This document shows positions 18,935 through 61,737 of a stretch of DNA of 64,000 nt, in pieces. Origin of the DNA: Candidatus Aminicenantes bacterium (GTDB lineage Bacteria; Acidobacteriota; Aminicenantia; Aminicenantales; CAVYOD01). The stretch covers positions 1,074,690 to 1,138,689 of the forward strand of contig OY969586.1 in NCBI GenBank assembly GCA_963701305.1, given 5' to 3'. Below the pieces are notes generated by a model that was given only the letters and a program-made list of their open reading frames with translations, did not search any database and was not told the DNA's origin. The translations under genes and the position numbers were made by a program. Within the stretch, counting starts at the first letter, position 1; every line of letters starts with the position of its first letter.

Positions 18935-20026
18935 TTGATGGCTAAATTTGAAGGGGTCAAATGGGCCTCCCGTCAGATGCGCTACAGTCTGGCCGAGAGG
19001 GAATTCGAGCTTTTGCCGGCCGACGCCCAGGTGTACGCGGTCTCTCGCTCCATCCACTATGCATTGTTCCTGGCCTTCGAGGGGATCAGGTTCTTCTGCA
19101 AGAAAAACGAGCGGGGCAGGACGGTGGCCATCTTTTTAAATTGGCACAAGAACCTGGAACGGTTCCAAAAAGGGATCGCCTTTAACCTGGGCCGCGACCA
19201 GCAGTCTTTGGTTCCATCGGCAGAGGAGATGGAACAGGTCTTCATCCAACGTTATTTCGGCCACCCTTCGATGCTGAGTTTTTTCGAAGAAATGGCCGGG
19301 ATGGAGGCGCAGGGTTATCTCAGGCCGTTTACGATCGACGAAGAGCAATCTACCGGCGTCACCTTCCCGGGAAAGCCGGCCATCCGGGCCACCGCCTACC
19401 GTTATGACCGCTACTTGGGAGAGCCCTTCTGCGGGGTTGTCATGCCCGGGATGGTCCGGGCCATCGGCATCAACAAAACGGGCTGTCTGAAGCTGGGCAC
19501 GAATTATGTCATCAGCATCAAGGCCATCGATGCCGCCAGGGAGATTTGCCCCGATTCGGCCTCGGCGCTCTTTCTCGATGACCAGCCGCACGCCAAACTC
19601 GAGGACCGCCGGATAACGGAATGGGATTCGTCCTGCTGTCTGTTCGGATTCAGGGACGGCACCGTCCTCAAGATCCCGGAGCACGAGCTGATCCTGCCTT
19701 CCGTGACCATCCTGGGGATCGTGGCCATTCTCAAAGAGGCGGGGGTGTCGGTCGAAGAGAGGCACCTGAAATATGGGGAACTTTTGGAAAGGGCAAAAAG
19801 CGGCGAACTTGTCGTGGCCTGTAGCGTTGGCACGGCAGGCATCTTGAACAGGTGCCAGAAGCTCGTCCTCACCGGCGAAAAAAACCAAATCATCGATACC
19901 CATCATCCGGACGAGAATCACCCGCTTTACCATAAGCTCGCTGAAGCCCGGGCGCGCTATTGGAGCATATTTAAAGAGAGAGCTTCGGCCCCACCTAACT
20001 GCAAGCTCTTCAAGTATGAGCTATAA
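18935..20026 (+). CDS. Class IV (fold-type IV) PLP aminotransferase-like protein (BCAT/DAAT family), atypical.
   Basis: Layout matches IlvE-like enzymes: SIHYALFLAFEGIRFF (hYg..vFEG.R), a Lys-containing GINKTGCLKLGTNYVIS, DGTVLKIP...LPSVT and ILKEAGVSVEERHLKYGELLERAKSGELVVACSVGTAGI. The usual E-x-G-x-N box is replaced by EWDSSCC. Confidence 0.55.
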   Translation: MMAKFEGVKWASRQMRYSLAEREFELLPADAQVYAVSRSIHYALFLAFEGIRFFCKKNERGRTVAIFLNWHKNLERFQKGIAFNLGRDQQSLVPSAEEMEQVFIQRYFGHPSMLSFFEEMAGMEAQGYLRPFTIDEEQSTGVTFPGKPAIRATAYRYDRYLGEPFCGVVMPGMVRAIGINKTGCLKLGTNYVISIKAIDAAREICPDSASALFLDDQPHAKLEDRRITEWDSSCCLFGFRDGTVLKIPEHELILPSVTILGIVAILKEAGVSVEERHLKYGELLERAKSGELVVACSVGTAGILNRCQKLVLTGEKNQIIDTHHPDENHPLYHKLAEARARYWSIFKERASAPPNCKLFKYEL

Positions 20027-20303
20027 TTCCGTCTCCGTGCCCCGTAAAGACAAGTGAGAAGTGAAGAACAAGAGTCGGGTTTCAGTCACTGCTTATCGCC
20101 CCAGGAGAAACTCATAGGCGGGTTCCCTCGCCCGAATCCGGAACCGCGCTCCACGAAATTAAAGCATTTTTGTTCTGACTGATAGCTTTAATGTTCTTTG
20201 TATTTGACTGCCCAGTGTTCATGGCTCACAGCTCACCATTTATGTTGATTAAATGAGGTTTTCTGTCTAAAATGATCCTAAACTTTCCCAGAGGAGGTCT
20301 CTG

Positions 20304-27975: not shown

Positions 27976-28048
27976 AATCGTCTTTCCCCGCGAGTACGGA
28001 ATAAAACCTCGCCTGGTGTTGTATTATGTTTATCGAGGAGGACGAACG

Positions 28049-34000: not shown

Positions 34001-34036
34001 AGCCACTCTGAGAGCCTGGAGCTGGAGGTCAAGTAG
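28049..34036 (+). CDS. Bacterial alpha-2-macroglobulin family protein (about 1995 aa; MG domains plus thioester-type domain).
   Basis: Size, signal peptide, MG-domain motifs (PGQMIFFKGI) and a thioester-like box FPYECSEQ (CSEQ at 32432..32443, versus CLEQ/CGEQ consensus). Start set at ATG with GAGGAGG RBS. The ORF track begins at 28016. Confidence 0.8.
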   Translation: MISQSLRNIIAAVLFAALLITAGSVVKGRQAGPMQEKTTQELWKKVAEAEKSGLPKTAADYLKQIAAMALRQKRYGESLRALTRQIILESVIKGNKPEVRVARLQEEMEKAPAEMKPMMKLIQAQWYWHYYSRNKWRFMNRTATEGFDEKDFTTWDLPKLFRAIDFLYREILKDEADLKKEALSSWKNLLIEGNRPPALRPTVFDFAVFEALDFYTSGEQSALPEDAFFIQADSDALAPAGQFLKYVPETTDLDSPKLQALRLFQKVMSFHLEDGNRDVFLDADLQRLGFVKNVAAGEGASDRYLARLKEIAEASPSSELSSLALYHMAQELYDREQPVEAYALADRAQKSHPSSLGASNSRALLARITAKEFELRCEAVLRPGSPGKLGLEYRNISSLHLRVIQDDISALLARKDGESLLWPSNEFVRGLVRRAPAARWTASLKPTPDYKKKTAFLEIPPLKPGFYWIFASFRESFSWEENKVQVASFWVSDLGLVTRGVAGGLQGYVVRNQAGTPVESAEVTLYNWNYNSSAFQKVGSARTDNLGSFSLSLPDSYSNRIVLVREAQGAELAEVEVPSPSSRTENPTAICVFFTDRSMYRPGQMIFFKGICLSVDKAQNDYRLLPKQRARVAFRDVNHQEIANLDLVSNEFGSLSGTFIAPADRLTGQMTISTESPRGSCSVRVEEYKRPKFEVKLNVPAQEFRLNDQIALPGEAMAYTGAPVDGALVKYRVVREVQYPWWWFYWSGWSARSQSQEIAHGIMRTDETGKFSVGFQAKPDPSVPASSGPTFQYKAYVDVTDSAGETRSAQGGVRLGYASLEAGMGCRDWQETGKPVILSVTTTTLNYKKVAARGTIEVFNLNGPEKPVPADLIGEVAFREQEVSRGKTFQGLSDTADWKKWPEGRMAATKEFITSEKDDVPCTLPFDLKKGAYKAKLKTQDKYGTAVESYLYFIVLDPAENKFPLKIPFFNSSKGSTAEVGQTYETLWGTGHEKGPVLVEVFQNNAWRQRSWMPPQQTQGVLRVAVDESLRGGFTVAISMVKENRFYRSEQRVNVPWSNKVLDLRWLTFRSKLRPGQAETWSVQIKGPQMALRAAEMVATLYDASLDQFYRHGFPGMIGVFRTDWTYVASNFANRRHDLQTFVDLLNSYPSFISIIYVHFPPDIEEDAYGYAYPRAAREQLAASPAAAEKNKDLEGKVLGGVVGGVLGGVVGEAEAKKAAEIDLTSVQARKNLNETAFFYPHLLTDKKGVVTLEFKIPEALTQWRFLGFAHTKDLESGSLEATAVTQKELMVQPNPPRFLREGDNLEFTVKVTNMAEKEAEGAVELAFFDPRTEKPLDAALGNRTKKLAFTIPAKQSRSFSWPVAVPDGLDLVSYKAVAATPGFSDGEEGVLPILSRRLLVRESVPLWISDQGEKKFTFEKLVASAGSKTLRNIGLVVQMASNPAWYAVQALPFLMEFPYECSEQVFNRLYANSLAQKIANSNPKIRRIFDLWKGTEALKSNLEKNEDLKSVLLQETPWVLESKAETQAKHNIGLLFDENRMGLEIKQALGKLANMQLSDGSWPWFPGGRGNSYITLYILTGFGRLKHLEVSSVSQATAEKALGHLDGWIREIYEDIMRSGNQDQNHLSPVAALYLYGRSFYLTTRPIPEASRKAVDYFLKQGERYWLQLDCRMSQAHLALALKRFGDEPTAQKIMHSMKERSQLDQEMGRFWSELEYSWWWYRAPIETQSVMIEAFDEIMNDQKAVEECRVWLLKQKQTQDWKTTKATADAVYGLVLRGTDLLASDSIVEVSLAGKNIEPEKVEPGTGFYEKRFEPGVIVPAMGNILVKKADKGIAWGGVHWQYMEDVSKITPHSQNPLRLKKSVFAQRLTKKGPVIEPAQAPLHVGDTLIIRIELRTDRDMEYIHLKDHRGSGLEPVNVLSQYKYQGGLLYYESTKDTATHFFIDYLPKGTYVFEYPLRVVHRGAYQNGLAHIECMYAPEFNSHSESLELEVK

Positions 34037-35234: not shown

Positions 35235-35350
35235 CCGGGGACGTTTCCCACGCCGACAGCCTCGAATCTTCAAGCACGGTTCTCATGGCAGCCAAACTGG
35301 AAACCTAATGAATGGAAACCAAAGAGTGTCCCCCTGGGGAACGTCCCTCA
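35235..35350. repeat. MITE-like inverted-repeat element, copy A (arms GGGGACGTTTCCCACG ... GTGTCCCCCTGGGGAACGTCCCTCAG).
   Basis: Terminal inverted repeats related to the copies at 52387..52504 and 61617..61737. The spacer is ~70 bp. Confidence 0.5.
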
Positions 35351-45727: not shown

Positions 45728-45756
45728 TTGACTTCGAGTGAGTCTGTTTTTACAAT
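45728..45756 (+). promoter_or_regulatory. Sigma70-like promoter for the pyl operon (-35 TTGACT, 17-bp spacer, -10 TACAAT).
   Basis: TTGACT at 45728..45733 and TACAAT at 45751..45756. The predicted transcript start is only ~8 nt before the pylSc ATG, giving a near-leaderless mRNA with no SD. Confidence 0.5.
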
Positions 45757-45771
45757 ACTTGACATAGACAC

Positions 45772-46602
45772 ATGATCGGCTGGACATCCTCTCAAAAGCA
45801 GCGCCTAAGAGAATTGAATGCCGACCCCGGCCTGCAGGAGAAAAACTTTTTGAGCTCTCGGGAACGAGACAAGGCCTTCCCTCTAGCCGAACGGCCACTC
45901 TGCCAAAGGAGCCTTCGGAAGCTACAGAAAATAAGGGAGAGCCGCAAACGGCCCAAGATCTGCAGATTGGAATCCAGGCTCATCCGCGCTCTCGTACGGG
46001 AAGGGTTCGTTCAGGTGACAACACCCATTCTGATCTCCCGGGGATCTCTGGAAAAAATGTCTATCGGAGAAAGCCACGAGCTGGCCAAGCAGGTCTTCTG
46101 GGTCGACGAGAACCGCTGCCTGCGGCCTATGCTGGCCCCTAACCTCTATTTTCTCCTGCGAGAGCTTGTCAAAGTCTGGGAGAAACCCGTTCGAATCTTC
46201 GAGGTGGGACCTTGTTTTCGCCGGGACAGCGCGGGGAAACACCACCTCAATGAATTCACGATGCTGAATCTGGTTGAACTCGGCCTCCCGGAAAAAACCA
46301 AGACGGAGAGGTTCGAGGAGCTGGCCGCTCTGGTCATGAAGACCGCCGGGATTCAGAATCATAAGTTTACCAGGCACCAGAGCGAGGTCTACGGCGAGAC
46401 AATCGACATCGATTCTACGATCGAGCTTGCTTCGGGGGTGATCGGCCCGAATCCGTTGGATTCCCGGTGGGAGGTCGTTGACAACTGGGTGGGCATCGGA
46501 GTCGGACTGGAGAGGCTGATCATGGTCAGCGAAAAGTATCAGAATATTCAGCGGGCTGGCCGGGCGCTTGTTTATCTGGACGGGATTCGGCTCAACATCT
46601 GA
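45772..46602 (+). CDS. pylS: Pyrrolysyl-tRNA synthetase catalytic (C-terminal) domain protein, PylSc.
   Basis: Near-collinear match to the PylS class II core: CLRPMLAPNLY, PVRIFEVGPCFRRDSAGKHHLNEFTMLN, VYGETIDI, ELASGVIGPNPLD, W.GIGVGLERL and the C-terminal GIRLNI (archaeal GISTNL). Confidence 0.88.
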   Translation: MIGWTSSQKQRLRELNADPGLQEKNFLSSRERDKAFPLAERPLCQRSLRKLQKIRESRKRPKICRLESRLIRALVREGFVQVTTPILISRGSLEKMSIGESHELAKQVFWVDENRCLRPMLAPNLYFLLRELVKVWEKPVRIFEVGPCFRRDSAGKHHLNEFTMLNLVELGLPEKTKTERFEELAALVMKTAGIQNHKFTRHQSEVYGETIDIDSTIELASGVIGPNPLDSRWEVVDNWVGIGVGLERLIMVSEKYQNIQRAGRALVYLDGIRLNI

Positions 46603-46639
46603 AAAGGACAAGGCCGCCCATTCATCAAGGAGGTTGCCA

Positions 46640-47287
46640 ATGGCTAAAGAAGAGATTCTCAAGGAAGCCGCAGAATCCATCATCAATCATGATAAGGCCA
46701 AGGCCGAAGAGGTTGCCAACCGCGCTTTGGCCCAGGGGCTGGACCCGCTCGAAGTCATAACGAGGGGATTCCGGGAGGGCATCATCCAGGTCGGAGATCT
46801 CTTCGGGCGAGGTGAAATCTTCATGCCGGAGCTCCTGGACGCCGCTGAGGCGATGAAAACTGCCAACACCATTCTCACGGCCGCACTGCCCGAAGGGGCG
46901 CAGCAAAAAAAGGGAAAAGTGGTTGTCGGGACGGTTCAGGGCGACATCCATGACATCGGAAAACTCCTGGTTGTTTCTCTTCTCCAGGTCAACGGATTTG
47001 ACGTTTTTGACCTCGGGCATGACGTCGAAATCGGGAAATTTATCGAAAAAGCCCTGGAAGTCGATGCCGATATCATCGGCACCAGCGCTCTCTTGACGAC
47101 GACCATGACCGGCCAAAAGACGCTCGAAGAGGAGCTGAGAAAGGGGGGCCTCAAGCCCCGCTTCAAGACGATGGTCGGAGGAGCCCCGGTGACACAGCGC
47201 TGGGCAGACCGGATCGGAGCCGATGCTTATGGAGAGGACGCGTCCGAGGCAGTCAAAAAGGCCCTCGAATTGATGGAGAAAAAGTAG
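46640..47287 (+). CDS. Methylamine-type corrinoid protein (MtbC/MtmC/MttC-like B12-binding protein).
   Basis: N-terminal helical cap, then a B12-binding Rossmann domain with the D-x-H-x-x-G box (GDIHDIGK) and a C-terminal ...ADAYGEDASEAVKKAL. Strong RBS AAGGAGG. The ORF track starts at 46568. Confidence 0.8.
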   Translation: MAKEEILKEAAESIINHDKAKAEEVANRALAQGLDPLEVITRGFREGIIQVGDLFGRGEIFMPELLDAAEAMKTANTILTAALPEGAQQKKGKVVVGTVQGDIHDIGKLLVVSLLQVNGFDVFDLGHDVEIGKFIEKALEVDADIIGTSALLTTTMTGQKTLEEELRKGGLKPRFKTMVGGAPVTQRWADRIGADAYGEDASEAVKKALELMEKK

Positions 47288-47299
47288 CTCCATAATCTC

Positions 47300-48415
47300 A
47301 TGCTTGATCAGCCCGTGTTCTCTTTAAAATTAGAAGACGTTCTGGGGAAGGCCCTGAGCCTGAGGGGCCTGACGGGTCCGGAAATCGTTTTCCTGCTGGG
47401 TCTCAAAGCAGAAGACGAGATCTGCCTCCTCTTTCAAACAGCCCAAGAGTTGAGGGAACGCTTTTTTGGCCCCAAGGTCTTCGCCTACGGATTCGTCTAC
47501 TTTTCGACCTATTGCCGCAACAATTGTCGGTTCTGTTCTTCGCGCATCTCCAATAAACAAAAATCACGATACCGGAAGACCGAATTCGAGATCAGGGAAG
47601 CGGCCTCGGGCCTGGCTGAATCGGGGGTCCACCTGATCGACCTGACCATGGGGGAAGATCCTCGTTATTACGGCCGCAGAGAAGAGTTCGAGGGCCTGGC
47701 CGAATTGGCCGCTGTCGTGAAACGCGAAACGGGCTTGCCGCTGATGATCTCTCCGGGCGCGGTCTCCGGGAAGACGCTCGGAGATTTCGCCCAAGCCGGA
47801 GTGGATTGGTACGCTTGCTACCAAGAAACGCACAACCGTCGGCTTTTCGATGAGTTGCGCCCCGGCCAGAGTTATGAGCGCCGCATGCTGAAGAAATACC
47901 GGGCCAGAGATTTGGGGATGCTGATCGAGGAGGGGATCATGGCCGGAGTCGGCGAGACCAGCCTGGATATCGCAGATTCCATCTCGGCCATGCGCGGGAT
48001 GGGCGCCCATCAGACCCGGGTCATGAGTTTCATCCCCCAGGACGGAACGCCCATGGTCGATAGACACTCTCCTCTGCGCCTCCGCGAACTTCTCATCATC
48101 GCCGTTCTTCGTCTTGCCTTTCCGGACCGGTTGATACCGGCCTCTCTGGATATCGACGGCCTGGCCTACCTGAAAGAGAGGCTCGAAGCCGGAGCCAATG
48201 TCGTCACTTCACTCATCCCACCGTCGATGGGGTTGTCCGGTGTTTCCCAGGCCAGTCTGGACATCAACGAAGGAAACAGAACGATCCAGGGAATTATCCC
48301 GGTCCTGGACGAGACCGGATTGGAGCTGGCCGACGCGGAGGACTACGGGAATTGGGTCGGAGAGGAAAGAAGGAAGCTTCGACGACAAAATCTCAACTGC
48401 GAGGCCGAGATTTGA
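47300..48415 (+). CDS. pylB: PylB, radical-SAM 3-methylornithine synthase (lysine mutase).
   Basis: CxxxCxxC radical-SAM box (YCRNNCRFC). BioB-like length of 371 aa. Position between pylS and pylC. Confidence 0.85.
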   Translation: MLDQPVFSLKLEDVLGKALSLRGLTGPEIVFLLGLKAEDEICLLFQTAQELRERFFGPKVFAYGFVYFSTYCRNNCRFCSSRISNKQKSRYRKTEFEIREAASGLAESGVHLIDLTMGEDPRYYGRREEFEGLAELAAVVKRETGLPLMISPGAVSGKTLGDFAQAGVDWYACYQETHNRRLFDELRPGQSYERRMLKKYRARDLGMLIEEGIMAGVGETSLDIADSISAMRGMGAHQTRVMSFIPQDGTPMVDRHSPLRLRELLIIAVLRLAFPDRLIPASLDIDGLAYLKERLEAGANVVTSLIPPSMGLSGVSQASLDINEGNRTIQGIIPVLDETGLELADAEDYGNWVGEERRKLRRQNLNCEAEI

Positions 48416-49578
48416 AAATCGCTGTGGTCGGGGGAAAGCTGCAGGGCACCGAGGCGACCTATCTTTCACACAAAGCGGGCTGGGAGGTCGTCCTGATCGA
48501 CAGGAGACCTACCGTGCCGGCGATGGGATTGGCCGACGAATTCCATCAAATCGACGTCGTCGACCAGGCCTCGAAGCTGCCTTCGATCCTGAAGAAAGCC
48601 GACCTTGTCATCCCGGCCGTCGAAGACGCGCTGGCGCTGCTGTCTTTAAGACTGGTGACCGAGCAAGAAAACATCCCCCTTGCCTATGACGAAGCCTCGT
48701 ATCGCGTGTCCTCATCGAAGATAAAATCCGACCGACTCTTCAAAGACCTCGACCTCGCCGCCCCTCGAGTCTGGCCTCGTTGCGACCCACCCTTTCTGGT
48801 CAAGCCATCCAGCGCGAGCGGAAGCCACGGCGTCCGCAAGATCAAAAACAGAGAGGACCTCGCTCCTTTTATTGCCGCAAGAGATACGCAGGGGGAGAGT
48901 TGGGTCGTCCAGGAATTCCTGGAGGGCCCTTCCTATTCTCTCGAAGTCTTGGGCTGTCGAAGAAAATTCGTCGACCTTCAGACGACGACAATCGAGGTGG
49001 ACACCCTCTATGATTGCAAGAGAGTCCTGGCACCGGCGGATCTTCCGCCGGTGTTGAAGGCCAATTTCGGCGACCTCGCCCGGAAGATCGCCGCCGATCT
49101 GGATCTTCGGGGGATCATGGACATCGAAGTCATCCTCCACCAGGGTCAGCTCAAGATCCTGGAGATCGATGCCCGCCTGCCGAGCCAGACCCCGACCGCA
49201 GTATATTGCTCAACGGGCATCAACATGATCGAGCTCCTCGTCGATATTTTTGCGCGGGGCTCGCTTCCCGATTCTCTCACCATCGATCAAGAAAAAGCGG
49301 TGATCTACGAGCACATCAAGGTCACGCCAGAGACGATCGAGGTCGCCGGCGAACACATCATGGCCGGGGCCGAACCTCTCAGAGTCCGGAAGGGCTTTTT
49401 TGGCGCGGACGAGGCCATCACAGATTTCAAACCGGGAAAAGCTGAGTGGGTGGCCACCTTGATCTTTGTCGGAAAAAGCCCTCAGAAGGTTCAGGCGCGG
49501 AGGGAAGCGACGATTAACGAACTCAAAAAATACTTTGGCTTAAACGTCTATAGGGACACGGTCCCCGGGAAAGATTGA
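48412..49578 (+). CDS. pylC: PylC, ATP-grasp 3-methylornithine--lysine ligase.
   Basis: The N-terminus KIAVVGGKLQGTEATYLSHKAGWEVVLIDRRP matches archaeal PylC (MKTICLIGGKLQGFEAAYLSKKAGMKVVLVDKNP). ATP-grasp core present. Probable TTG start overlapping the pylB stop (TTGA). The ORF track begins at 48352, inside pylB. Confidence 0.85.
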   Translation: MKIAVVGGKLQGTEATYLSHKAGWEVVLIDRRPTVPAMGLADEFHQIDVVDQASKLPSILKKADLVIPAVEDALALLSLRLVTEQENIPLAYDEASYRVSSSKIKSDRLFKDLDLAAPRVWPRCDPPFLVKPSSASGSHGVRKIKNREDLAPFIAARDTQGESWVVQEFLEGPSYSLEVLGCRRKFVDLQTTTIEVDTLYDCKRVLAPADLPPVLKANFGDLARKIAADLDLRGIMDIEVILHQGQLKILEIDARLPSQTPTAVYCSTGINMIELLVDIFARGSLPDSLTIDQEKAVIYEHIKVTPETIEVAGEHIMAGAEPLRVRKGFFGADEAITDFKPGKAEWVATLIFVGKSPQKVQARREATINELKKYFGLNVYRDTVPGKD

Positions 49579-49619
49579 TGCGTTCCTTCAATGATCTTAA
49601 ACGCCGGGTTGGGTAGGAA

Positions 49620-50492
49620 ATGACGCGCCTGACGACGGAATTTGTCCGTTCCATTCCAGACGATCTCCGTCTCTATGACCAGGGATTGCTCGAGAAGACC
49701 GGCCACAGCCTCCGACAGATTGCCTGCCGGGCCTCCCGAATCGAAGAATCGGAGATGGGCATGCTTCTTGGCTCAACACTCGTCGGGATCGTACCGGTGA
49801 CCTCGGGAGAAGGTAAGATCGAGGGCTTCTGTCAGGCTGTTCAGGGCATTACGAACCACCTCGGCGCCCCTTCGTTCGTGACGCGTCATCCGGACGTGGC
49901 CGGCTTGGCCGAAGCCGTCGAACGAAGAGCCGAGGTCATCTTCCTCGCCGATGATGGCAGATTCATCGCCCTGAACATGGTGTCCAGGACGGCCGTCGAC
50001 AATTCCGAAGCCACCGCCCGGGGATATCTCGCGGCCCTCGATTTCCTTGCGAAGGGGCTGAGGGGGAGGCCCGTCCTGGTCATAGGCGCAGGCCGGGTTG
50101 GGGGAGAAGCGCTTTCCGTCCTTCAAGAGTACGGAGCACGGCCGGGAGTCTATGATCCCGACGACAGGAAAACCCGGCCCCTCGAATCGGGAAGCATGAT
50201 CATCATCGAAAGAGATCTGGAGAAGGCTCTGGAAAAATATTCTCTCCTTCTCGAAGCCTCTCCGGCCTCAGCGATCATTCAGGAGAGACACATAAAGCCT
50301 GATACTATGATTGCCGCTTGCGGCATCCCGCTGGGGTTGAGCCCCGCGGCCGCGGTCCTCGTCCGGGAGCGTTTGATCCATGATCCCTTGCAGATCGGTG
50401 TGGCCGCCATGTTGACGATGGCGCTCACGAGGCGGAGGAATAAAGTGTGGGGGGTAGATCGGAAAGATCCCATAGACCCTAAATCTATGTAG
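49620..50492 (+). CDS. pylD: PylD, pyrrolysine synthase (NAD-dependent dehydrogenase).
   Basis: GIVPVTSGEGKIEGFCQAVQGITNHLGAPSFVTRHPDVAGLAEAVERRAEVIFLADDGRFIALNM is collinear with archaeal PylD (VGIVPVTSGNGIIGNFSASL...DMPDVSGYYEAVQNGAEIILMADDRTFLAHN). Rossmann GAGRVGG. A C-terminal ~20-aa extension reads into the pylT gene. Confidence 0.85.
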   Translation: MTRLTTEFVRSIPDDLRLYDQGLLEKTGHSLRQIACRASRIEESEMGMLLGSTLVGIVPVTSGEGKIEGFCQAVQGITNHLGAPSFVTRHPDVAGLAEAVERRAEVIFLADDGRFIALNMVSRTAVDNSEATARGYLAALDFLAKGLRGRPVLVIGAGRVGGEALSVLQEYGARPGVYDPDDRKTRPLESGSMIIIERDLEKALEKYSLLLEASPASAIIQERHIKPDTMIAACGIPLGLSPAAAVLVRERLIHDPLQIGVAAMLTMALTRRRNKVWGVDRKDPIDPKSM

Positions 50493-50521
50493 CCGGGTGA
50501 AACTCCCGGACTCCCCGCCAC
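50450..50521 (+). tRNA. pylT: tRNA-Pyl (pylT), anticodon CUA, with the CCA end encoded.
   Basis: Manual fold: acceptor GGGGGGT/ACTCCCC (7 bp, one G-U); one nt (A); D-stem GATC/GATC with a 5-nt loop GGAAA; one nt (C); 6-bp anticodon stem CATAGA/TCTATG; loop CCCTAAA (anticodon CTA at 50480..50482); 3-nt variable loop TAG; T-stem CCGGG/CCCGG with loop TGAAACT; discriminator G; then CCA. These are the hallmark tRNA-Pyl features (6-bp anticodon stem, short D-loop, 3-nt variable loop, single nt between acceptor and D stems). Confidence 0.78.
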
Positions 50522-50578
50522 AACGATATAGATAGCGCAGTCGGCGAAACCAAAGGTTTCGCGACCGAGGCCGAGACG

Positions 50579-50908
50579 ATGACCGAGAAGATCAAGGAAA
50601 AATACTATCGAAAGCAGACCGACTTCTTTTTGCTGCTCGACAAGATCAAGCTTTGGCCGTCCCGAAAAGGTCTTCTTCACGGTGTCAAAGTCCTCGAGAT
50701 CAAAGGATCTCTGGCTGAGGTCACCACTCATTGCGACCGGACGTTCCGAGTTCGCTACTCACGGCACAGCCGGGCCGCCCGGTGGCTGCGCAACAAATGG
50801 CACAAGGGCCCCTGCCGGGAGTGCCAGATTCCCGACTGGAAACTCGAAAAATACGAGAAGACATATTTTGACCAACATCGAGGGTCAACCCTGAGAGGCA
50901 AGGACTGA
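50579..50908 (+). CDS. pylSn: PylSn, stand-alone N-terminal tRNA-Pyl-binding domain of the split pyrrolysyl-tRNA synthetase.
   Basis: LWPSRKGLLHGVKVLEIKGSLAEVTTHCDRTFRVRYSRHSRAARWLRNKWHKGPCRECQIP aligns with the archaeal PylS N-terminus ([61 protein letters not shown]), including the zinc-ligand Cys/His positions. Confidence 0.82.
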   Translation: MTEKIKEKYYRKQTDFFLLLDKIKLWPSRKGLLHGVKVLEIKGSLAEVTTHCDRTFRVRYSRHSRAARWLRNKWHKGPCRECQIPDWKLEKYEKTYFDQHRGSTLRGKD

Positions 50909-50939
50909 TGAATCCAGAAAAAAAGGAGGTGAAAAAGAC

Positions 50940-52325
50940 ATGTCGAAAATCAGAACCAGAATGGGAGATGCGTCTGTTGTCGAGGTCACCGAGGGCCGGC
51001 TCCGGGCCGACTTAGAGGAGGGAACGAAAGATGCGGCTCAACGGGGGAAAATTCCGCCGTTGTCGCAGGATGAGCTGAACCATCTGTATGATATCTACAG
51101 CGCGCCTTCAAGAGTGGTCGGCGTGGAGCCGGGCAACGAGGTCGTCTTCACCTATGACTCCACGGTGGGCGAAATCCAGCGCACCCTTATCCCTGTGAAC
51201 AGAATCCAGTCACTGCAGATGTTCGAGCGGATGTTGGGCGCGGACACAGTCGAACTGGCTCATAATGATTACAGCTTCAAAGCCGTAAAGCCCATCATCA
51301 GCGATGAACGCACCGCCCTGGAGCAAGCCCTTTTGGTGACGACGGTGCCCGTGCTCTACGGCGCCATGCCTAACCTCGGGCTCTATAATAAGCCCGAAGG
51401 CCCAGTTCCGAATTCCTCAAAACTGATGTCCGAAGGAAAAATCAAGGAAGCCAGAGCGTCCATGGAAGAGGCCATCGAATTTGCGATCCGGGATATGGTC
51501 TATGTGGCCAGCGAACTTTACGAATCCGGCGTCGACGCGATCGATTTTGACACCACGGGCTCGGCCGGTGATCCCGATTTTTTGGCCACGCTGAAAGCCG
51601 TCGAAATCCTGAAGAAAAAGTATCCTGATATCTGCGTCGAAATGGGAATGTCCGGAGAGTTTATCCTGGGAATGCACGGCGGACTGACTTATGACGGGAC
51701 CAGGTTGGCCGGGCTCTACCCGCACCAGCAGGTGAAGCTGGCCGAGAAAGCGGGCGTCACAATCTTCGGCCCGGTCGTCAACACGAACACGAGCAAAACC
51801 TGCGCCTGGAACGCGGCCCGAGTCATCACCTTCCTGAAGACCTGTGTAGAACAATCCAACATTCCCGTGCACGCGAATATGGGGATGGGTGTGGGCGGAC
51901 TTCCTGTGACCCCCTTCGTGCCTATTGACGCGGTTTCGAGGGCATCGAAGGCCGTTGTCGAGTTGACGAGACTGGACGGGTTGTAGGTGGGCGTAGGCGA
52001 TGTTCTCGGCATGGCCGCGACTCATGCGATCGCTTCGGGCATGGGCGGGATGCGCACTGCCGGAGATCTGGTGGCGCGCATGCAAATGTCCCGGGGCCTG
52101 AGAATCCGACAAGCCAAAGAGTACGTGGCCGGCAAACTGAAAATTAGCCCCATCGATCTGGCCGATCCGTTGATCATGTCAGAAATCAGAGAGGACTTGA
52201 AGCTGGGCCTGATCAATCCTCCTCCCAACTACGCGGTTGGGATCGAGGCCAAGTTCCATGTCGCCGCGCTTTTGGGAATCGAAATCCGGAGCCTCAAACG
52301 CTTCAAGGAAAAGGCGGGCCTTTGA
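50940..52325 (+). CDS. mtbB: Dimethylamine:corrinoid methyltransferase MtbB. A single in-frame UAG is read as pyrrolysine (codon 349). The ORF track splits it at 51986.
   Basis: Both halves are collinear with archaeal MtbB: RMGDAS..., GAMPNLGLYNKPEGP, VVNTNTSKTCAWNAARVITFLK, ...[17 protein letters not shown][TAG][51 protein letters not shown] (MtbB reads ...[53 protein letters not shown]...). Both ORFs are in the same frame. RBS AAGGAGGTG. Confidence 0.85.
51984..51986 (+). other. In-frame amber (UAG) codon predicted to encode pyrrolysine in mtbB.
   Basis: A TAG in frame joins ORFs 50940..51986 and 51987..52325 exactly at the conserved Pyl position of MtbB homologs. Confidence 0.8.
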
Positions 52326-52386: not shown

Positions 52387-52504
52387 GGGGACGTTCCCCA
52401 AGGGGACACCCTTGGGGAACGTGAGTCTTGGATGAAATTCCGCATTGCTGTATAGTTTTGCTCGAAGGCCGAAGGGTGTCCCCGTGGGGAACGTCCCTCA
52501 GTTT
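52387..52504. repeat. MITE-like inverted-repeat element, copy B. The left arm alone forms a perfect 14-bp hairpin.
   Basis: Left GGGGACGTTCCCCAAGGGGACACCCTTGGGGAACGTGAG at 52387..52425. Right GGGTGTCCCCGTGGGGAACGTCCCTCAGTTT at 52474..52504. Related copies at 35235 and 61617. Confidence 0.55.
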
Positions 52505-52533: not shown

Positions 52534-54921
52534 ATGAGAGTTCGCGCCCTGATATTCATGGTTATGGTTACTTTGCTTTCGATGCTCACGCCGCTCGCCG
52601 GCCAACAGCAACTCACCCGTGATGATTATGCTCGGGCGGAGCGCTTTCTCATGTGGAACATCAACAAGCTGGTCTTCAAATTGAAGGTCACTCCCCACTA
52701 CGTCGGAAAAACAGACCGATTCTGGTACAAGAACGAGACCCGCGAGGGGAAGGAATTTGTCCTCGTCGACCCGGTGCTCAACACGCGGCAGCCCGCCTTT
52801 GACCAGGCCAGGCTTGCCGCGGGTCTCTCCACGGCCTCGGGGAAGGCCTATGAACCGATGAAACTTCCTTTTGAGATATTCGAATATGCGAGAGATGGGA
52901 AAGCCATCCAGTTCGATATCGAAAAAACGCGCTGGACTTGCGATCTCGGGACCTACGCCTGCACAAAAAGCGATGCGTCCAAAGCCATAGACGAGGGAGA
53001 GAGTCTCTCCCCGGACGGCCGCTGGGCGGCTTTCGTCAAAGACCACAATCTTTATGCCAGACCCACGGCGGGCGGGGCGGAGGTCCAGCTCACGACCGAT
53101 GGTGAGGCCTATTACGATTACGGCACCGAAACCGAGCAGAGCACATCCGCCGTGACCGTCCGGCTGAGCGGCAAAAAACAGCCTCCGGTTCTTCTCTGGT
53201 CCCCCGATTCCAAGAAGATTCTCACCCACAAGCTCGACCAGAGAAAAGTCGAGCCGCTCTACCTTCTCCAATCTGCACCGCCTCAAGGCTTTGGAAGGCC
53301 CGCTCTCCACACCTATCGTTTCGCCATGGTCGGTGATAAGAACCTTCCGCTCGCGGAGATGGTCATCATCGATGTCGAGCAGAAAAAACTATCGCCCTTT
53401 AAGGGCAAGCCGTTCGTGCTAAACTTCATGTCACCCGTCACGATGCAGCAGGTTTGGTGGGGCGAGGACAGCCGGAACGTTTATGCCATCGAGGAAGAGC
53501 GCGCCTATAAGGCGGTCCGTCTCTGGTCCGCCGATGCGGTCTCGGGAGAGACCCGACTCCTCGTCGAGGAAAAGGGCTCGACCTTCGTCGATCTCAACCT
53601 CATGGAATTCCGGCCGAATGTCCGGATCCTGGGAATCGGGTCAGAGATCATCTGGTTCTCCGAGCGCGACGGCTGGGCCCATCTCTATCTTTATGACGGC
53701 AAAACCGGGGCCCTCAAGAACCAGATCACCAGGGGGCCATGGGTTGTCCGCGACATCCTTCTCGTCGACGAAACAAATCGGTGGGTTTACTTTACAGGGG
53801 GCGGCCGGGAAAAGGGCCGTGATCCGTATTTTCAGCATCTTTACAGGGTGAAGCTGGATGGCTCCATGACTCAGCTATTGACCCCAGAAGACGCCGAACA
53901 CTCGCTCTCAACCATGCCGACGAATCCGGGCTCTCTGGAAATGCAGAGCACATTTTCACCATCGGGTCGCTATTTTGTGGATTCCTACTCCCGCCTCGAC
54001 ATGGCTCCTGTATCAGTGGTCCGGGACTCGGAGGGCCGGCTCGTCCGGGATCTCGAAAAGGGGGATGTCGATCTTCTGCTCGCCACCGGATGGAAATGGC
54101 CGGAGAGATTTTCGGTCAAGGCAAGGGACGGAGTCACGGATCTCTACGGCACCATCTATAAACCCACGAACTTTGACCCTGCGAAGAAATATCCGGTCAT
54201 TGACGGAATCTATCCCGGCCCTCAGGTCATCCGGACTCCGAAAGCCTTCGGCTCCGACCTCTTCTCTATCTACGAGCTCAGCGAGGACGTTTCTCTGGGG
54301 GAGCTGGGGTTTATCGTGGTCAACATCGATGGGCTGGGCACTCCCCTTCGCTCGAAAGCGTTTCATGATTTCTGCTATGGAAAGATGGAAGACGCCGGAG
54401 GGCTTGAAGACCACATCACCGGACTCAGGCAGCTGGCGGCTTCCAGGCCGTATATGGACCTCAGCCGGGTCGGTATTTACGGCCACTCGGGCGGAGGGTT
54501 CGCCTCGACGCATGCCATTCTGGCCTACCCTGACTTCTATAAGGTGGCCGTCTCCTCGGCCGGGAACCATGACCAAAGAGGATACCTGGCCGGCTGGGGC
54601 GAAAAATACCAGGGATTGCTCGAAGGGGACAATTACAAAGCCCAAGCAAACTTGGGCCTGGCCGCCAACCTCAAGGGAAAACTGCTTTTGGCCCACGGCG
54701 ACATGGACGACAACGTCCATCCCTCGCTGACCATGCAGGTCGTCGACGCTCTTATCAAAGCCAACAAGGACTTCGACCTTCTCATCTTGCCCAACCGGAA
54801 CCATGGCTTTTCTGTGGATCCTTACTTCACCCGGCGCAAGTGGGATTATTTTGTCCGGCACCTTTTGGGTGCCGAGCCTCCCCAGGGCTATGAGATCAAA
54901 ATGGGCAAATTGAATTTTTGA
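52534..54921 (+). CDS. S9-family serine peptidase (dipeptidyl aminopeptidase / acylaminoacyl-peptidase-like; beta-propeller plus alpha/beta hydrolase), secreted.
   Basis: Signal peptide. Nucleophile elbow GHSGGGF. C-terminal Asp/His region (AHGDMDDNVH, NRNHGF). Confidence 0.75.
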   Translation: MRVRALIFMVMVTLLSMLTPLAGQQQLTRDDYARAERFLMWNINKLVFKLKVTPHYVGKTDRFWYKNETREGKEFVLVDPVLNTRQPAFDQARLAAGLSTASGKAYEPMKLPFEIFEYARDGKAIQFDIEKTRWTCDLGTYACTKSDASKAIDEGESLSPDGRWAAFVKDHNLYARPTAGGAEVQLTTDGEAYYDYGTETEQSTSAVTVRLSGKKQPPVLLWSPDSKKILTHKLDQRKVEPLYLLQSAPPQGFGRPALHTYRFAMVGDKNLPLAEMVIIDVEQKKLSPFKGKPFVLNFMSPVTMQQVWWGEDSRNVYAIEEERAYKAVRLWSADAVSGETRLLVEEKGSTFVDLNLMEFRPNVRILGIGSEIIWFSERDGWAHLYLYDGKTGALKNQITRGPWVVRDILLVDETNRWVYFTGGGREKGRDPYFQHLYRVKLDGSMTQLLTPEDAEHSLSTMPTNPGSLEMQSTFSPSGRYFVDSYSRLDMAPVSVVRDSEGRLVRDLEKGDVDLLLATGWKWPERFSVKARDGVTDLYGTIYKPTNFDPAKKYPVIDGIYPGPQVIRTPKAFGSDLFSIYELSEDVSLGELGFIVVNIDGLGTPLRSKAFHDFCYGKMEDAGGLEDHITGLRQLAASRPYMDLSRVGIYGHSGGGFASTHAILAYPDFYKVAVSSAGNHDQRGYLAGWGEKYQGLLEGDNYKAQANLGLAANLKGKLLLAHGDMDDNVHPSLTMQVVDALIKANKDFDLLILPNRNHGFSVDPYFTRRKWDYFVRHLLGAEPPQGYEIKMGKLNF

Positions 54922-54927
54922 CCAAAT

Positions 54928-55035
54928 GGTGAGTCGTGGGCACTGAGCAGTGAGAAGAAAGGGAGCGGGAACAAGAGGACAGCGATCCGGCTTGAATTCT
55001 TTGCTCCTCACCCCTGACCCCTTACCCCTCACTGT
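54928..55035. repeat. REP-like element pair (GGTGAGTCGTGGGCACTGAGCAGTGAGAAG ... CTCCTCACCCCTGACCCCTTACCCCTCACTG) downstream of the S9 peptidase gene.
   Basis: Shares the CACTGAGC..GTGAG and CCCCTTACCCC cores with the other copies. Confidence 0.45.
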
Positions 55036-55074
55036 CCCTGTGCGAGAGACGATACCTTGAGAAGGAGGATGCTG

Positions 55075-56475
55075 ATGGCAAACTTCACAAAGAAGCTTGG
55101 TATTCTTGGGATCATAGTGTTGCTCTTGACCGGTTTCTTGGCCTTTGCTCAGGAAAAGGCCCAGGACAAGCGGAAAGCCCTCGACCCGAAAACACCGACA
55201 ACCGATGACCCCCGGCGGATTCCCGTGCCGCCGGGTCCACGCGGGCCGGAGGGTGTTCTCGTCCTCCGGGGGGGGCGCATCTTTGACGGCACGGGCGCTC
55301 CGGTGCGGCCCGGGACTCTTGTCATCCGGCGAAACAAAATTGACAAAGTCCTCCCGGCCGGGTCCGCCGACTGGCCGAAAGAGGCGCGGGTCATTGATCT
55401 TGCGGGGAAAACGGTCCTGCCGGGGCTGATCGACGCCCACACCCATATCGACTACGCCGAGCCCGGAGCCTCATTCCTGATGGAGATCAGCGAGGCCGAC
55501 GCCATGCTCCGGGCCGTCGAAAAGGCGCGGTTCTTTTTGGAGTGCGGCATCACCAGTATCCGGGACGTCGGCTCGTTGCACAACGTCCCCTTCCGGCTCA
55601 AGGAGTGGGTTTCACAGAACCGTGTCCCCGGCCCGCGCATCTTTGCCGCCGGAGCATTCATCACCTCGACCGGCGGCCACGGCGCAGAGGGAATCGACCC
55701 GGACATCCTCGTGCCCAAGAGCACCCGGATCGCCGAGGGCCCGGACGAGTGGAGGCAGGCCGTCCGGGAGCAGTTCAACCGCGGCGCCGACCTCATCAAG
55801 ACAGGTAGTCATTTCAGCCGCGAGGAGATCGGAGCCGCCGTAGAAGAAGCACACGCCCTGGGACTCAAAGTGGCCTGCGACGCCGAGACTTTTTACATCC
55901 GCTGGGCGGCCGAGGCCGGAGTCGACGTCATCGAGCATCCATTGCCCCGGACCGATGAGACGATCCAGCTTATGGCCCAAAAAGGCACCCAATCTGTGCC
56001 CACGCTCGTCCCCTACACCTATATCTTTGACCAGTCCGGCGGATACTTTTTCTCAACTTCACGCCGATTCACTTTCTCCAAGGAGGCCAACCTCGAAGTC
56101 CTCCGCCGCATGAAAAAAGCCGGAATCAAAATGGGAATCGGCACCGACCTGGTGACAGATTGGTTCCGCTACCTCCCGATCCCCTACATCAGCGAGCTCA
56201 AATATTTTGTCCAGGCCGGGTACACGATGGGCGAGGCCCTCGTGGCCGGGACCAAAACCAACGCCGAGATCCTGGATATGGATGATAAGCTCGGGACGCT
56301 GGAATCGGGAAAGCTTGCCGACGTCACTGTCATCGATGGAAAGCCGGACGAGAATCTGGACGACCTCGCCAAAGTGGACCTGGTCATCCGGGACGGGTTT
56401 CTCGTCGTCAAGGGAGGCGAAGTCGTTATACCGCGACACGTTCCCATCATACCGCCCCAGCCCAAAACCAAATAA
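55075..56475 (+). CDS. Amidohydrolase-family metallo-hydrolase (imidazolonepropionase / Xaa-Pro dipeptidase-like), secreted.
   Basis: Signal peptide. LPGLIDAHTHID metal-binding motif. RBS GAAGGAGG. The ORF track begins at 55057. Confidence 0.7.
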   Translation: MANFTKKLGILGIIVLLLTGFLAFAQEKAQDKRKALDPKTPTTDDPRRIPVPPGPRGPEGVLVLRGGRIFDGTGAPVRPGTLVIRRNKIDKVLPAGSADWPKEARVIDLAGKTVLPGLIDAHTHIDYAEPGASFLMEISEADAMLRAVEKARFFLECGITSIRDVGSLHNVPFRLKEWVSQNRVPGPRIFAAGAFITSTGGHGAEGIDPDILVPKSTRIAEGPDEWRQAVREQFNRGADLIKTGSHFSREEIGAAVEEAHALGLKVACDAETFYIRWAAEAGVDVIEHPLPRTDETIQLMAQKGTQSVPTLVPYTYIFDQSGGYFFSTSRRFTFSKEANLEVLRRMKKAGIKMGIGTDLVTDWFRYLPIPYISELKYFVQAGYTMGEALVAGTKTNAEILDMDDKLGTLESGKLADVTVIDGKPDENLDDLAKVDLVIRDGFLVVKGGEVVIPRHVPIIPPQPKTK

Positions 56476-60869: not shown

Positions 60870-61648
60870 GGGGGAAGAAAACGAAGCAGGTCCTGGTCAT
60901 GGCTATCTTATCTTCGACCATCGCATTGGTGGTTTCGGCCGAGAAGCAATGGCAGGTCCACGATCCTAGCAGGCCCCTCCCCCCGGTCGTTAATCCAGGT
61001 CCCGCCGGCCCTTCGATCCAGCCGCCGTCAGATGCCGCCATCCTCTTCGACGGCCGGGATCTTTCCCAGTGGACGGACGCCAAAGGCCATCCGGCAAAAT
61101 GGAAGGTTGAGAACGGTTATGCGGAGGTCGTGGACAAAACGGGGAGCATCCGCACGATCAAAGGATTCGGAGACTGTCAGCTCCATGTCGAATGGAGGGC
61201 GCCTCTCCCGGCCATCGGCGAAGGACAGGATAGAGGCAACAGTGGCGTTTTTTTGATGGACACTTACGAGATCCAGGTTCTGGATTGTCACAACAATAAG
61301 ACCTATGCCGATGGAATGGCGGCAGCCGTCTATGGCCAATATCCGCCCCTGGTGAATGCCTGCCGGCCGCCCGGAGAATGGCAGACCTATGATATCGTGT
61401 TCCACCGGCCACGTTTTGACCAGGAAGGGAAACTCCTGAAGCCTGCCCGGATGACCGTCTTCCACAATTGCGTTCTGGTTCAGGACGATGTTGCACTCAC
61501 CGGGCCGACGGCCCACAAAGCCCGGCCGCCTTACAAAGCCCATCCTGACAAGATGCCGCTTTCCCTTCAGGATCACGGCCACCCCGTCCGCTACCGGAAC
61601 ATCTGGATTCGTGAGCTGGGGGACGTTCCCCAAGGGGACACCCTTTAG
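60866..61648 (+). CDS. DUF1080 (3-keto-disaccharide hydrolase, LamG-like) domain protein, secreted.
   Basis: Signal peptide. ILFDGRDLSQWTD, HVEWR, GNSGVFLM and C-terminal YRNIWIREL are typical DUF1080 features. The start overlaps the upstream gene's stop (ATGA). Confidence 0.7.
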   Translation: MRGKKTKQVLVMAILSSTIALVVSAEKQWQVHDPSRPLPPVVNPGPAGPSIQPPSDAAILFDGRDLSQWTDAKGHPAKWKVENGYAEVVDKTGSIRTIKGFGDCQLHVEWRAPLPAIGEGQDRGNSGVFLMDTYEIQVLDCHNNKTYADGMAAAVYGQYPPLVNACRPPGEWQTYDIVFHRPRFDQEGKLLKPARMTVFHNCVLVQDDVALTGPTAHKARPPYKAHPDKMPLSLQDHGHPVRYRNIWIRELGDVPQGDTL

Positions 61649-61737
61649 TCCATAAAGGAAGAACAGCGGGGTGGTAAGCCTCATAATACGACATTCAGGG
61701 ATCAAGGGTGTCGCCTAGGGGAACGTCCCCCAGTGAG
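61617..61737. repeat. MITE-like inverted-repeat element, copy C. Its left arm supplies the last 9 codons of the DUF1080 gene.
   Basis: Left GGGGGACGTTCCCCAAGGGGACACCC at 61617..61642. Right GGGTGTCGCCTAGGGGAACGTCCCCCAGTGAG at 61706..61737. Confidence 0.55.

Follow-up and report, generated by a model that had tools for sequence, protein, structure and literature searches.

The biochemistry of the dimethylamine methyltransferase MtbB, of its corrinoid protein MtbC, of the activator RamA and of pyrrolysine (Pyl) itself has been established (PMC2933860). Zhang and Gladyshev (2007, PMC1976440) described bacterial mtbB genes with a conserved UAG, both in the delta-1 symbiont of Olavius algarvensis and in other Desulfobacterota. 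In Acetohalobium arabaticum and Desulfotomaculum acetoxidans pyl cassettes are interleaved with methylamine methyltransferase genes (PMC2933860; PMC5424206), and pyl genes usually cluster with mtxBC (PMC5424206). For the mtbB transcript a consensus structure has been predicted, deposited as Rfam RF02509 PYLIS_2 (Have et al. 2013, PMC3639795), and the PYLIS of mtmB1 was found not to be essential (PMC2933860).

Here we analyse a 64-kb stretch of DNA (further called the window) of a Candidatus Aminicenantes bacterium, in which positions 50940-52325 of the plus strand hold, with very little doubt, one intact mtbB gene for a Pyl-dependent dimethylamine:corrinoid protein Co-methyltransferase, the last in a unit of eight genes. 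As the source is an Aminicenantes bacterium, the proper comparison is with bacterial systems of split pyrrolysyl-tRNA synthetase (PylRS) and not with archaea. Pyl-MtbB in bacteria and pyl/mtxBC clusters have been known for years, so the arrangement is a textbook one, met here in a little-studied group; in the literature searched we found no account of pyrrolysine use in Aminicenantes.

With MtbB1-3 and MtbC of Methanosarcina barkeri the system of the window shares the family (PF09505/TIGR02368), the single in-frame UAG at a family-specific position, the alignment of the Rfam mtbB PYLIS model from UAG and, presumably, a cognate corrinoid protein. It differs in that it is a bacterial system and its PylRS consists of two subunits, PylSc and PylSn. 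Coenzyme M cannot be assumed as methyl acceptor here, and genes of MtbA and RamA are not found nearby. The genome of the Olavius symbiont has the same set of pylT, pylSn, pylSc and pylBCD, but it belongs to another phylum, carries several mtbB copies against one in the window, and has mtbC after mtbB and not inside the pyl cassette. A. arabaticum and D. acetoxidans also have a split PylRS, and in them too a methyltransferase gene is clustered with pylBCD and pylT.

The mtbB frame and the family of its product

A sequence-only reading of the window had pointed to two ORFs, 50940..51986 (348 aa, ATG start) and 51987..52325 (112 aa), lying in one frame and split by TAG 51984-51986 alone. This is borne out, and the peptide around the TAG is as it was quoted there. 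AGGAGG at 50924-50929 precedes the ATG at 50940, the TAG is the sole interruption in 462 codons and the final stop is TGA. Such geometry alone is not above chance, since the window contains 44 same-frame pairs of stretches that stay open for 90 codons or more and have one stop between them, and TAG is this stop in 17 of the 44. It is homology that makes the pair significant.

The 461-aa read-through product (X at TAG) gives one unbroken HMM alignment with Pfam PF09505 Dimeth_Pyl (E 1e-193), which joins residues 4-457 to model positions 3-462 of 463 and runs through the TAG. With the NCBIfam equivalog TIGR02368 it scores 512.5 bits (cutoff 369.1), and PF06253, the model of the MttB/MtgB superfamily, shows no match to it at E<=0.001. 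Non-Pyl members of this superfamily (MtgB, glycine betaine type) are similar in corrinoid-dependent methyl transfer and in having a partner B12-binding protein, but they belong to PF06253 and lack UAG, whereas MtbB of the window is not matched by PF06253 and its ORF has TAG. The earlier assignment to MtbB with UAG at the conserved Pyl position thus holds over the product end to end, and the best homology is not to the non-Pyl superfamily, which that reading had named as the competing family. For its claim of likeness to archaeal MtbB, support comes from the HMMs of the family together with the Rfam model; our protein search for a named archaeal MtbB returned C-terminal fragments only.

The nearest relative comes from a Candidatus Aminicenantes MAG (locus L002), with 96% amino acid identity, the same flanking genes and the TAG kept. 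Identity to Desulfobacterales loci is 56-62%, and across phyla it is about 52-60%, with an invariant active-site neighbourhood, in which residue 349 would be placed by analogy with the family. A sequence search of the PDB found no relative, and MtbB itself has no solved structure. The AlphaFold model of a 468-aa homologue, P0055, has a pLDDT of 67.9, falling below 50 after the Pyl position, and Foldseek with this model gave generic TIM-barrel matches only (among them MetH barrels, UROD and MeTr; E about 1e-4 to 1e-3), MtmB and MttB being absent among the matches; from this model we conclude nothing beyond a barrel-like fold. The same homologue was considered as a non-Pyl MtbB with Gln at the Pyl position, but its DNA reads TAG and the Gln comes from the alternative code used by the gene caller.

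Organization of the pyl cassette

The unit spans 45772-52325 in the order pylSc - mtbC - pylB - pylC - pylD - pylT - pylSn - mtbB, all on the plus strand. Just 5' of pylSc, at 45728..45756 (+), there is a candidate operon promoter, a sigma-70-like consensus match (TTGACT-17-TACAAT) agreeing at 10 of 12 positions. The first gene, pylSc (45772..46602), encodes the catalytic, C-terminal subunit of split PylRS (TIGR02367 PylS_Cterm, 333.7 bits, cutoff 178; class II aaRS domains). Biosynthesis of Pyl is represented by pylB for methylornithine synthase, a radical SAM protein (47300..48415; TIGR03910, 459 bits, cutoff 348), pylC for 3-methylornithine--L-lysine ligase (48424..49578, called as 384 aa, the ORF being open from 48352; TIGR03909, 453 bits, cutoff 248) and pylD for the dehydrogenase (49620..50492; TIGR03911, 241.7 bits, cutoff 150). 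The N-terminal, tRNA-binding subunit of PylRS is encoded by pylSn (50579..50908; TIGR03912, 119.2 bits, cutoff 51).

Between pylD and pylSn lies pylT for tRNA-Pyl with anticodon CUA (50449..50520, +), recognized by ARAGORN and by its fold. It overlaps the last 44 nt of pylD, whose TAG stop (50490-50492) falls inside the tRNA variable loop. In the cloverleaf a single base separates the acceptor stem from the D stem, the D loop has 5 nt, the anticodon stem 6 bp and the variable loop 3 nt, and the T-psi-C motif is lacking; compensatory changes among 15 homologues affect the acceptor stem as well as the stems of the anticodon and D arms. With the Rfam tRNA model pylT was not detected at E<=1. Separate pylSc and pylSn, together with a tRNA-Pyl(CUA) showing the expected oddities, characterize the system as a bacterial split-PylRS one. 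With all five protein genes above the NCBIfam cutoffs and the tRNA present, the cassette is complete and adjacent to mtbB, which makes mtbB its client gene in the window, as had been proposed earlier.

Ten Aminicenantes-clade loci span this region, and in every one of them gene order and the position of pylT are identical; among the 80 loci examined the order pylSc-mtbC-pylBCD-pylT-pylSn-mtbB with pylT overlapping the pylD end was seen in Aminicenantes-clade loci only. In L002 the pylB, pylC and pylD matches are fragmented, which suggests indel errors in that assembly. A palindromic intergenic repeat element with 29-nt inverted arms is located 3' of mtbB, at 52387..52498, with further copies at 35237-35348 and 61618-61731; it possibly marks the operon end.

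The earlier reading can be refined by the observation that a gene for a corrinoid protein of the cognate type, the presumed partner of MtbB, is present too, inserted between pylSc and pylB. This mtbC (46640..47287, +) codes for an MtbC-type methyltransferase-cognate corrinoid protein with B12-binding and B12-binding_2 domains, which scores 235.2 bits with TIGR02370 pyl_corrinoid (cutoff 215.3) and 209 bits, under the cutoff of 350, with the MtbC equivalog NF041607. An alternative start is TTG 46568; gene callers take the 215-aa form. Its stop is TAG (47285-47287), and it shares its frame with pylB. The TAG stop recurs in 7 of 8 Aminicenantes-clade loci and the common frame with pylB in 4 of 8, but as a general feature it is rejected, there being no enrichment outside the clade (TAA 20, TGA 8, TAG 6); it is probably a clade trait without meaning.

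Predicted pathway and its substrate

The mechanism proposed for the mtbB operon follows what is established for this enzyme family. PylB, PylC and PylD would convert two lysines into pyrrolysine, with which the split PylRS (PylSc and PylSn) would charge tRNA-Pyl(CUA). At UAG 51984-51986 the charged tRNA, delivered by the ordinary elongation factor, would compete with release factor 1, and translation past this codon would yield the 461-aa enzyme with Pyl349. The imine of Pyl is expected to bind and activate dimethylamine, the Co(I) corrinoid of the MtbC-type protein (46640-47287) to take the methyl group with release of monomethylamine, and a second methyltransferase, encoded elsewhere, to pass the methyl on to an acceptor. 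The ORFs in the 64 kb of the window include neither a methylcorrinoid:acceptor methyltransferase nor a RamA-type activator nor an amine transporter, a result that speaks for the window and not for the genome; within the window the pathway is therefore incomplete.

This absence of the second methyltransferase leaves some room for a Pyl enzyme of the MtbB family whose substrate is not dimethylamine, or whose methyl acceptor is an unusual one (e.g. homocysteine and not pterin). Pointing in the same direction are the corrinoid protein score below the MtbC equivalog cutoff and the genes that precede the cassette in a more distant Aminicenantes locus (L006): one of the homocysteine S-methyltransferase family, one for a second corrinoid protein and one of the non-Pyl MttB family. 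Against it, the dimethylamine methyltransferase equivalog model is passed by a wide margin, and the enzyme is conserved across phyla with its active-site neighbourhood unchanged. We regard such a divergence as unlikely and keep to a dimethylamine methyltransferase as the predicted function.

Aminicenantes are usually seen as fermentative, saccharolytic or proteolytic. The predicted system adds to them a complete genetic-code-expansion cassette with a methylamine-using enzyme, and such bacteria may compete for dimethylamine with methylotrophic methanogens in anoxic sediments.

Integrity of mtbB across the TAG

In the window TAG terminates 12 of 35 homology-supported genes (34% of stops), among them mtbC and pylD of the mtbB operon itself. 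The TAG-ended genes show no sign of back-up stops: a further stop in frame follows at a median of 30 codons, compared with 13.5 codons for genes ending in TGA and 42 for those ending in TAA.

Such frequent use of TAG as a real terminator, also within the operon, favours a pseudogene, in which a nonsense mutation would leave just a truncated, non-functional product of 348 aa. The comparative data go against this. TAG occupies the Pyl column in 89 of 89 mtbB copies from 80 bacterial genome loci, distributed over Aminicenantes, Desulfobacterota, Chloroflexota, Bacillota and others. The 112 codons after TAG are open and homologous to the family C-terminus, and comparison with Aminicenantes homologues gives a dN/dS of 0.14-0.29, which means purifying selection 3' of the TAG; moreover, the full pyl cassette adjoins the gene. 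The pseudogene reading is strongly disfavoured and we judge it very improbable.

Equally hard to sustain is a split gene, whose 348-aa and 112-aa chains, the second one started from GTG 51987, would assemble with no read-through. Gene callers do annotate two ORFs, and the GTG following the TAG here is a possible start. Codon 350, nevertheless, is GTG in 41 copies only, while other homologues have GTT (28), GTA (13) or an Ile codon, which cannot start translation, so that a start codon is not conserved at this place; no ribosome-binding site lies before it either, the preceding bases being the coding triplets GAC GGG TTG. Gene callers cut thousands of database mtbB homologues at the same point, into 348-aa N-terminal and 104-115-aa C-terminal parts. 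On the reading of one Pyl-containing gene, 50940..51986 and 51987..52325 belong merged, and the same mis-split is widespread in databases.

A sequencing or assembly error at the TAG can be dismissed as having a negligible chance: nothing specific favours it apart from the fragmented pyl matches of the L002 assembly, and two independent assemblies (ERR12036778, ERR15459715) record an identical N-terminal product of 348 aa together with the same neighbouring genes, which makes such an error unlikely, while TAG is also found in the 96%-identical L002 copy and in every other one.

Decoding context and the downstream hairpin

In Methanosarcina TAG is a rare stop, in contrast to the Aminicenantes window. 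With TAG ending 12 of 35 genes here and no back-up stops nearby, read-through of UAG is not automatically efficient or specific: where TAG is a common true terminator in the genome, its decoding must be conditional, by expression of the operon, and/or helped by context. Two features could serve as such a context. The first is the codon before UAG, UUG (Leu348, 51981-51983), which is TTG in 80 of 87 mtbB copies, with an entropy of 0.5 bit compared to about 2.3 at other conserved Leu columns. The second is an RNA hairpin of 13 bp, AUGCGC-A-CUGCCGG-AGAU-CUGGUGG-C-GCGCAU, at 52050..52081 (+), that is 67-98 nt counted from the U of UAG.

The hairpin is supported by its fold, by covariation and by synonymous diversity. 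Its predicted energy is -21.2 kcal/mol (z -4.04), the pairing is kept in 91.1% of cells and 5 pairs are changed on both sides. The core 52059-52070 (GCC GGA GAT CTG) is frozen at synonymous sites and belongs to the sole valley of synonymous diversity in mtbB, at codons 365-388. The structure is also kept in a lineage of 52% identity and 42% GC.

Rfam RF02509 PYLIS_2 (mtbB) matches 51984..52083 (+) with 64.4 bits (gathering score 36), model position 1 falling on UAG. Its 3' half is overlapped by the hairpin, and the 3' hairpin of the model (positions 73-92) is the core of the longer stem supported here (67-98); the model helix is paired in 86% of cells, and in 91% when extended. The 5' hairpin of the model, unlike the 3' one, is not kept: it has 4 mis-paired positions here and 68.7% of cells paired across bacteria, with almost no covariation. 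The 100-nt PYLIS region as a single stable structure was rejected as well (z just -0.93), and the alternative helix 61-65/74-78 proposed by RNAalifold is not preferred, having 94.6% of cells paired and zero covariation. Whereas no common RNA structure was found in the earlier bacterial survey (PMC1976440), one hairpin is supported in the Aminicenantes mtbB. It is too distant from UAG to act in the manner of a bacterial SECIS.

We tentatively propose, though we hold it for rather doubtful, that the hairpin and the fixed UUG form a cis-acting context signal kept across phyla, which would raise the yield of full-length MtbB where UAG also terminates. The signal might act from a distance to give Pyl-tRNA the advantage over release factor 1, or it might shield the downstream mRNA whenever ribosomes stop at UAG. 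If true, bacterial mtbB would have its first functional 'PYLIS', in a gene where, according to reviews, such an element could not be seen. The operon offers a compact bacterial test case for telling Pyl-UAG (mtbB) from stop-UAG (mtbC, pylD), and the hairpin downstream of the mtbB UAG is open to synonymous mutation.

Identity of the interrupted gene

The open reading frames 50940..51986 (ATG start, 348 aa) and 51987..52325 (112 aa) lie in one common frame, and the 462 codons of 50940-52325 (+) are interrupted only once on translation, by the TAG at 51984-51986, exactly as the sequence-only reading had described; AGGAGG is found at 50924-50929, upstream of the ATG. Such a geometry is unremarkable by itself, as the window (56% GC) contains 44 cases in which two open stretches of 90 codons or more share a frame and are split by one stop, TAG in 17 of them, and the evidence must therefore come from homology. 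The 461-aa product (X at the TAG) was matched by Pfam Dimeth_Pyl PF09505 in a single stretch (residues 4-457, model positions 3-462 of 463, E 1e-193) and scored 512.5 bits with the NCBIfam equivalog TIGR02368 ([dimethylamine--corrinoid protein] Co-methyltransferase; cutoff 369.1), while profile search gave no match of the read-through product to the MttB/MtgB family. The protein thus belongs with MtbB and not with the non-pyrrolysine MttB type. A TAG is aligned to 51984-51986 in 89/89 mtbB copies from 80 bacterial genome loci, which confirms the proposed location of the UAG at the conserved pyrrolysine (Pyl) position, here Pyl349.

Database search returned 2648 relatives, and the best 120 are nearly all exactly 348 (or 341/350) residues long, so that gene callers evidently cut them at the same codon; a query with the C-terminal part gave 2480 matches, mainly fragments of 104-115 aa. 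Purifying selection acts on the 112 codons following the TAG, with dN/dS of 0.14-0.29 in comparison with six homologues of the Aminicenantes clade. This part has no conserved start, as codon 350 varies (GTG 41 copies, GTT 28, GTA 13), and must therefore be reached by read-through. A sequencing error at the TAG is argued against by two independent assemblies, in which the identical N-terminal product and the same neighbours are recorded. Judged from these comparisons, 50940-52325 is very probably a Pyl-dependent mtbB gene.

Some full-length database proteins of the MtbB family show Gln at the Pyl position (the 468-aa homologue P0055 and those of loci L081-L083), because the gene caller used a code reading TAG as Gln; the DNA carries TAG, and P0055 was rejected as a full-length MtbB with Gln. 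Entries of this kind are a trap in hunts for non-Pyl MtbB homologues. One Desulfobacterales copy (L070, about 5520-5530) has a second stop immediately ahead of the Pyl-UAG, so that two stops in a row stand between RLDG and VG; a pseudogene or a fault of assembly may be the explanation.

The pyl cassette and its putative operon

The stretch directly upstream of mtbB carries a complete Pyl system on the same strand: pylSc (45772-46602), a corrinoid protein gene (46640-47287), pylB (47300-48415), pylC (48424-49578), pylD (49620-50492), the tRNA-Pyl(CUA) gene pylT (50449-50520; the sole tRNA found by ARAGORN in the whole window) and pylSn (50579-50908). The pylSc, pylB, pylC, pylD and pylSn products all exceed their curated cutoffs, and the earlier view of mtbB as a client of the adjacent cassette is thereby upheld; the corrinoid protein falls into the pyl_corrinoid subfamily and under the MtbC equivalog cutoff. 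The tRNA fold has one base between the acceptor and D stems, a 5-nt D loop, a 6-bp anticodon stem, a 3-nt variable loop and no T-psi-C motif, all known peculiarities of tRNA-Pyl, and an alignment of 15 homologues revealed compensatory changes in three stems. With a promoter-like match at 45728-45756 and a palindromic element downstream of mtbB, the eight genes from pylSc to mtbB look like one operon.

By analogy with characterized systems, PylBCD would convert lysine to pyrrolysine, the split PylRS would charge tRNA-Pyl and the general elongation factor would deliver it to the UAG, where Pyl349 would bind and activate dimethylamine, the methyl group then being taken by the Co(I) corrinoid protein (PMC2933860, PMC5424206). 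For Pyl decoding no dedicated factor and no obligatory mRNA signal are known (PMC2933860, PMC5424206).

Two gene junctions within the cassette deserve mention. pylD and pylT overlap by 44 nt, the TAG stop of pylD sitting in the variable loop of the tRNA, and if the tRNA were excised from the operon transcript, the pylD message would lose its stop codon; the two genes overlap by 9-44 nt in 8/8 Aminicenantes-clade loci checked. The corrinoid protein gene also ends in TAG, with pylB in frame four codons on (region 47285-47302), and read-through here would fuse the corrinoid protein to PylB. This TAG stop is found in 7/8 clade loci and the common frame with pylB in 4/8; outside the clade mtbC ends show no TAG enrichment.

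Lineage and gene order

The closest genome match is the Candidatus Aminicenantes MAG MFD04408.bin.2.57, with 96% aa identity in MtbB and conserved flanking amidohydrolase and dipeptidyl-peptidase genes; NCBI assigns these bacteria to candidate phylum Aminicenantota. The order pylSc-mtbC-pylB-pylC-pylD-pylT-pylSn-mtbB is kept in all clade loci long enough, down to 58% PylSc identity, including several records labelled 'uncultured Eubacteriales'. Dehalococcoidia loci differ in having pylBCD-(pylSn)-mtbB-mtbC, and in Desulfobacterales mtbB-mtbC is mostly apart from the cassette. In the nearest MAG locus (L002, 6355-9902) tblastn matches for pylB, pylC, pylD and pylSn are only fragmentary, which suggests indel errors in the assembly rather than gene decay.

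Pyl-MtbB has been known in bacteria since 2007 (PMC1976440), clustering of pyl genes with methyltransferase/corrinoid protein pairs (mtxBC) is described as usual (PMC5424206) and interleaved gene orders are documented (PMC2933860), so the mtbB gene itself adds little new; a GenBank MAG protein is already named 'dimethylamine:corrinoid methyltransferase [Candidatus Aminicenantes bacterium]'. Among the papers searched, those that mention both Aminicenantes and pyrrolysine contain no discussion of Pyl use by this group. What is added is confined to a gene order specific to the lineage and to the hairpin supported below.

UAG as stop and as Pyl codon

TAG terminates 12/35 homology-supported genes of the window, mtbC and pylD of the same operon included, and 26/88 mtbB copies themselves across loci; UAG therefore serves as both stop and Pyl codon, and avoidance of UAG is absent in these bacteria. 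No back-up stops close after TAG-ended genes were found among the 35. The double role was noted long ago in Desulfitobacterium (PMC1976440). The codon preceding the Pyl-UAG (51981-51983) is UUG in 80/87 copies (entropy 0.5 bit, where other conserved Leu columns reach about 2.3), TTC taking its place in the 52%-identical group L081-L083. The fixed UUG may bear, through codon context, on whether the UAG is suppressed or terminates translation.

A conserved hairpin after the UAG

The Rfam mtbB model PYLIS_2 (RF02509) matches from the UAG onward with 64.4 bits. In the window its 5' hairpin has four disrupted pairs, and the test on 89 mtbB copies gave this hairpin no support, nor is the whole 100-nt region unusually stable (z -0.93). 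Scanning codon entropy over the whole gene disclosed one frozen stretch, codons 374-377 (GCC GGA GAT CTG, 52059-52070), with GGA invariant (about 1.9 bits at other conserved Gly columns). The sole deep valley of synonymous diversity in a sliding window spans codons 365-388 (0.33 vs 0.596 +/- 0.056 in all copies; 0.06 vs 0.45 within the Aminicenantes clade).

A 13-bp hairpin at columns 67-98, counted from the U of UAG (52050-52081; -21.2 kcal/mol, z -4.04), has the frozen stretch as its core and extends the 3' hairpin of PYLIS_2. Its cells are paired in 91.1%, against 30-45% with partners slid, and five pairs have changed on both sides, giving 71 double-change cells vs 21 +/- 7 shuffled, counts that are not probabilities, since the sequences are related and the extended structure was derived from the window's own fold. 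The wobble pair 75:90 is UA in 34 copies, UG in 24, CG in 12, AU in 5, GC in 3 and unpaired in 7, with at least 15 changes on the tree in column 75 and at least 21 in column 90. The hairpin is kept in the 52%-identical, 42% GC lineage despite different amino acids. With the UAG in the A site it would start about 50 nt past the ribosome edge, an estimate that we take from general ribosome footprints, and so cannot act like a bacterial SECIS. A joint role of the hairpin and the -1 codon as a functional context signal in bacterial UAG decoding appears to us rather unlikely. An earlier study had predicted a consensus structure for mtbB (PMC3639795); a review saw nothing resembling the mtmB element in mtbB (PMC2933860).

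Genomic surroundings

A second methyltransferase, a RamA-type activator and a transporter are all missing from the 64-kb window, whose remaining genes encode peptidases, amidohydrolases, beta-lactamase-fold proteins, a proline racemase, regulators and proteins with similar functions. Upstream of the pyl cassette in a more distant Aminicenantes locus (L006, 458-4571) lie genes for a homocysteine S-methyltransferase-family protein, a SAM methyltransferase, a second corrinoid protein and a non-Pyl MttB-family protein, the last one uninterrupted, and another MttB-family gene lies at 19801-21015; the window has nothing of this set. The arrangement in L006 hints at one possible methyl acceptor.

On both sides of the operon (20304-45637 and 52534-56475) genes for the turnover of peptides and amino acids abound, such as those for X-Pro dipeptidyl peptidase, DPP-IV, a D-aminopeptidase-like protein, several amidohydrolases and proline racemase; an alpha-2-macroglobulin-like protein of 2006 aa is encoded at 28016-34036. 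The palindromic element, about 112 bp and intergenic, occurs at 35237-35348, 52387-52498 and 61618-61731, with conserved terminal arms of ~27 nt (GGGGACGTTCCCCAAGGGGACACCCT ... AAGGGTGTCCCCnTGGGGAACGTCCC) and a variable centre. A mir-3199 match from one copy was dismissed as spurious, and the element may be REP/MITE-like or a terminator.
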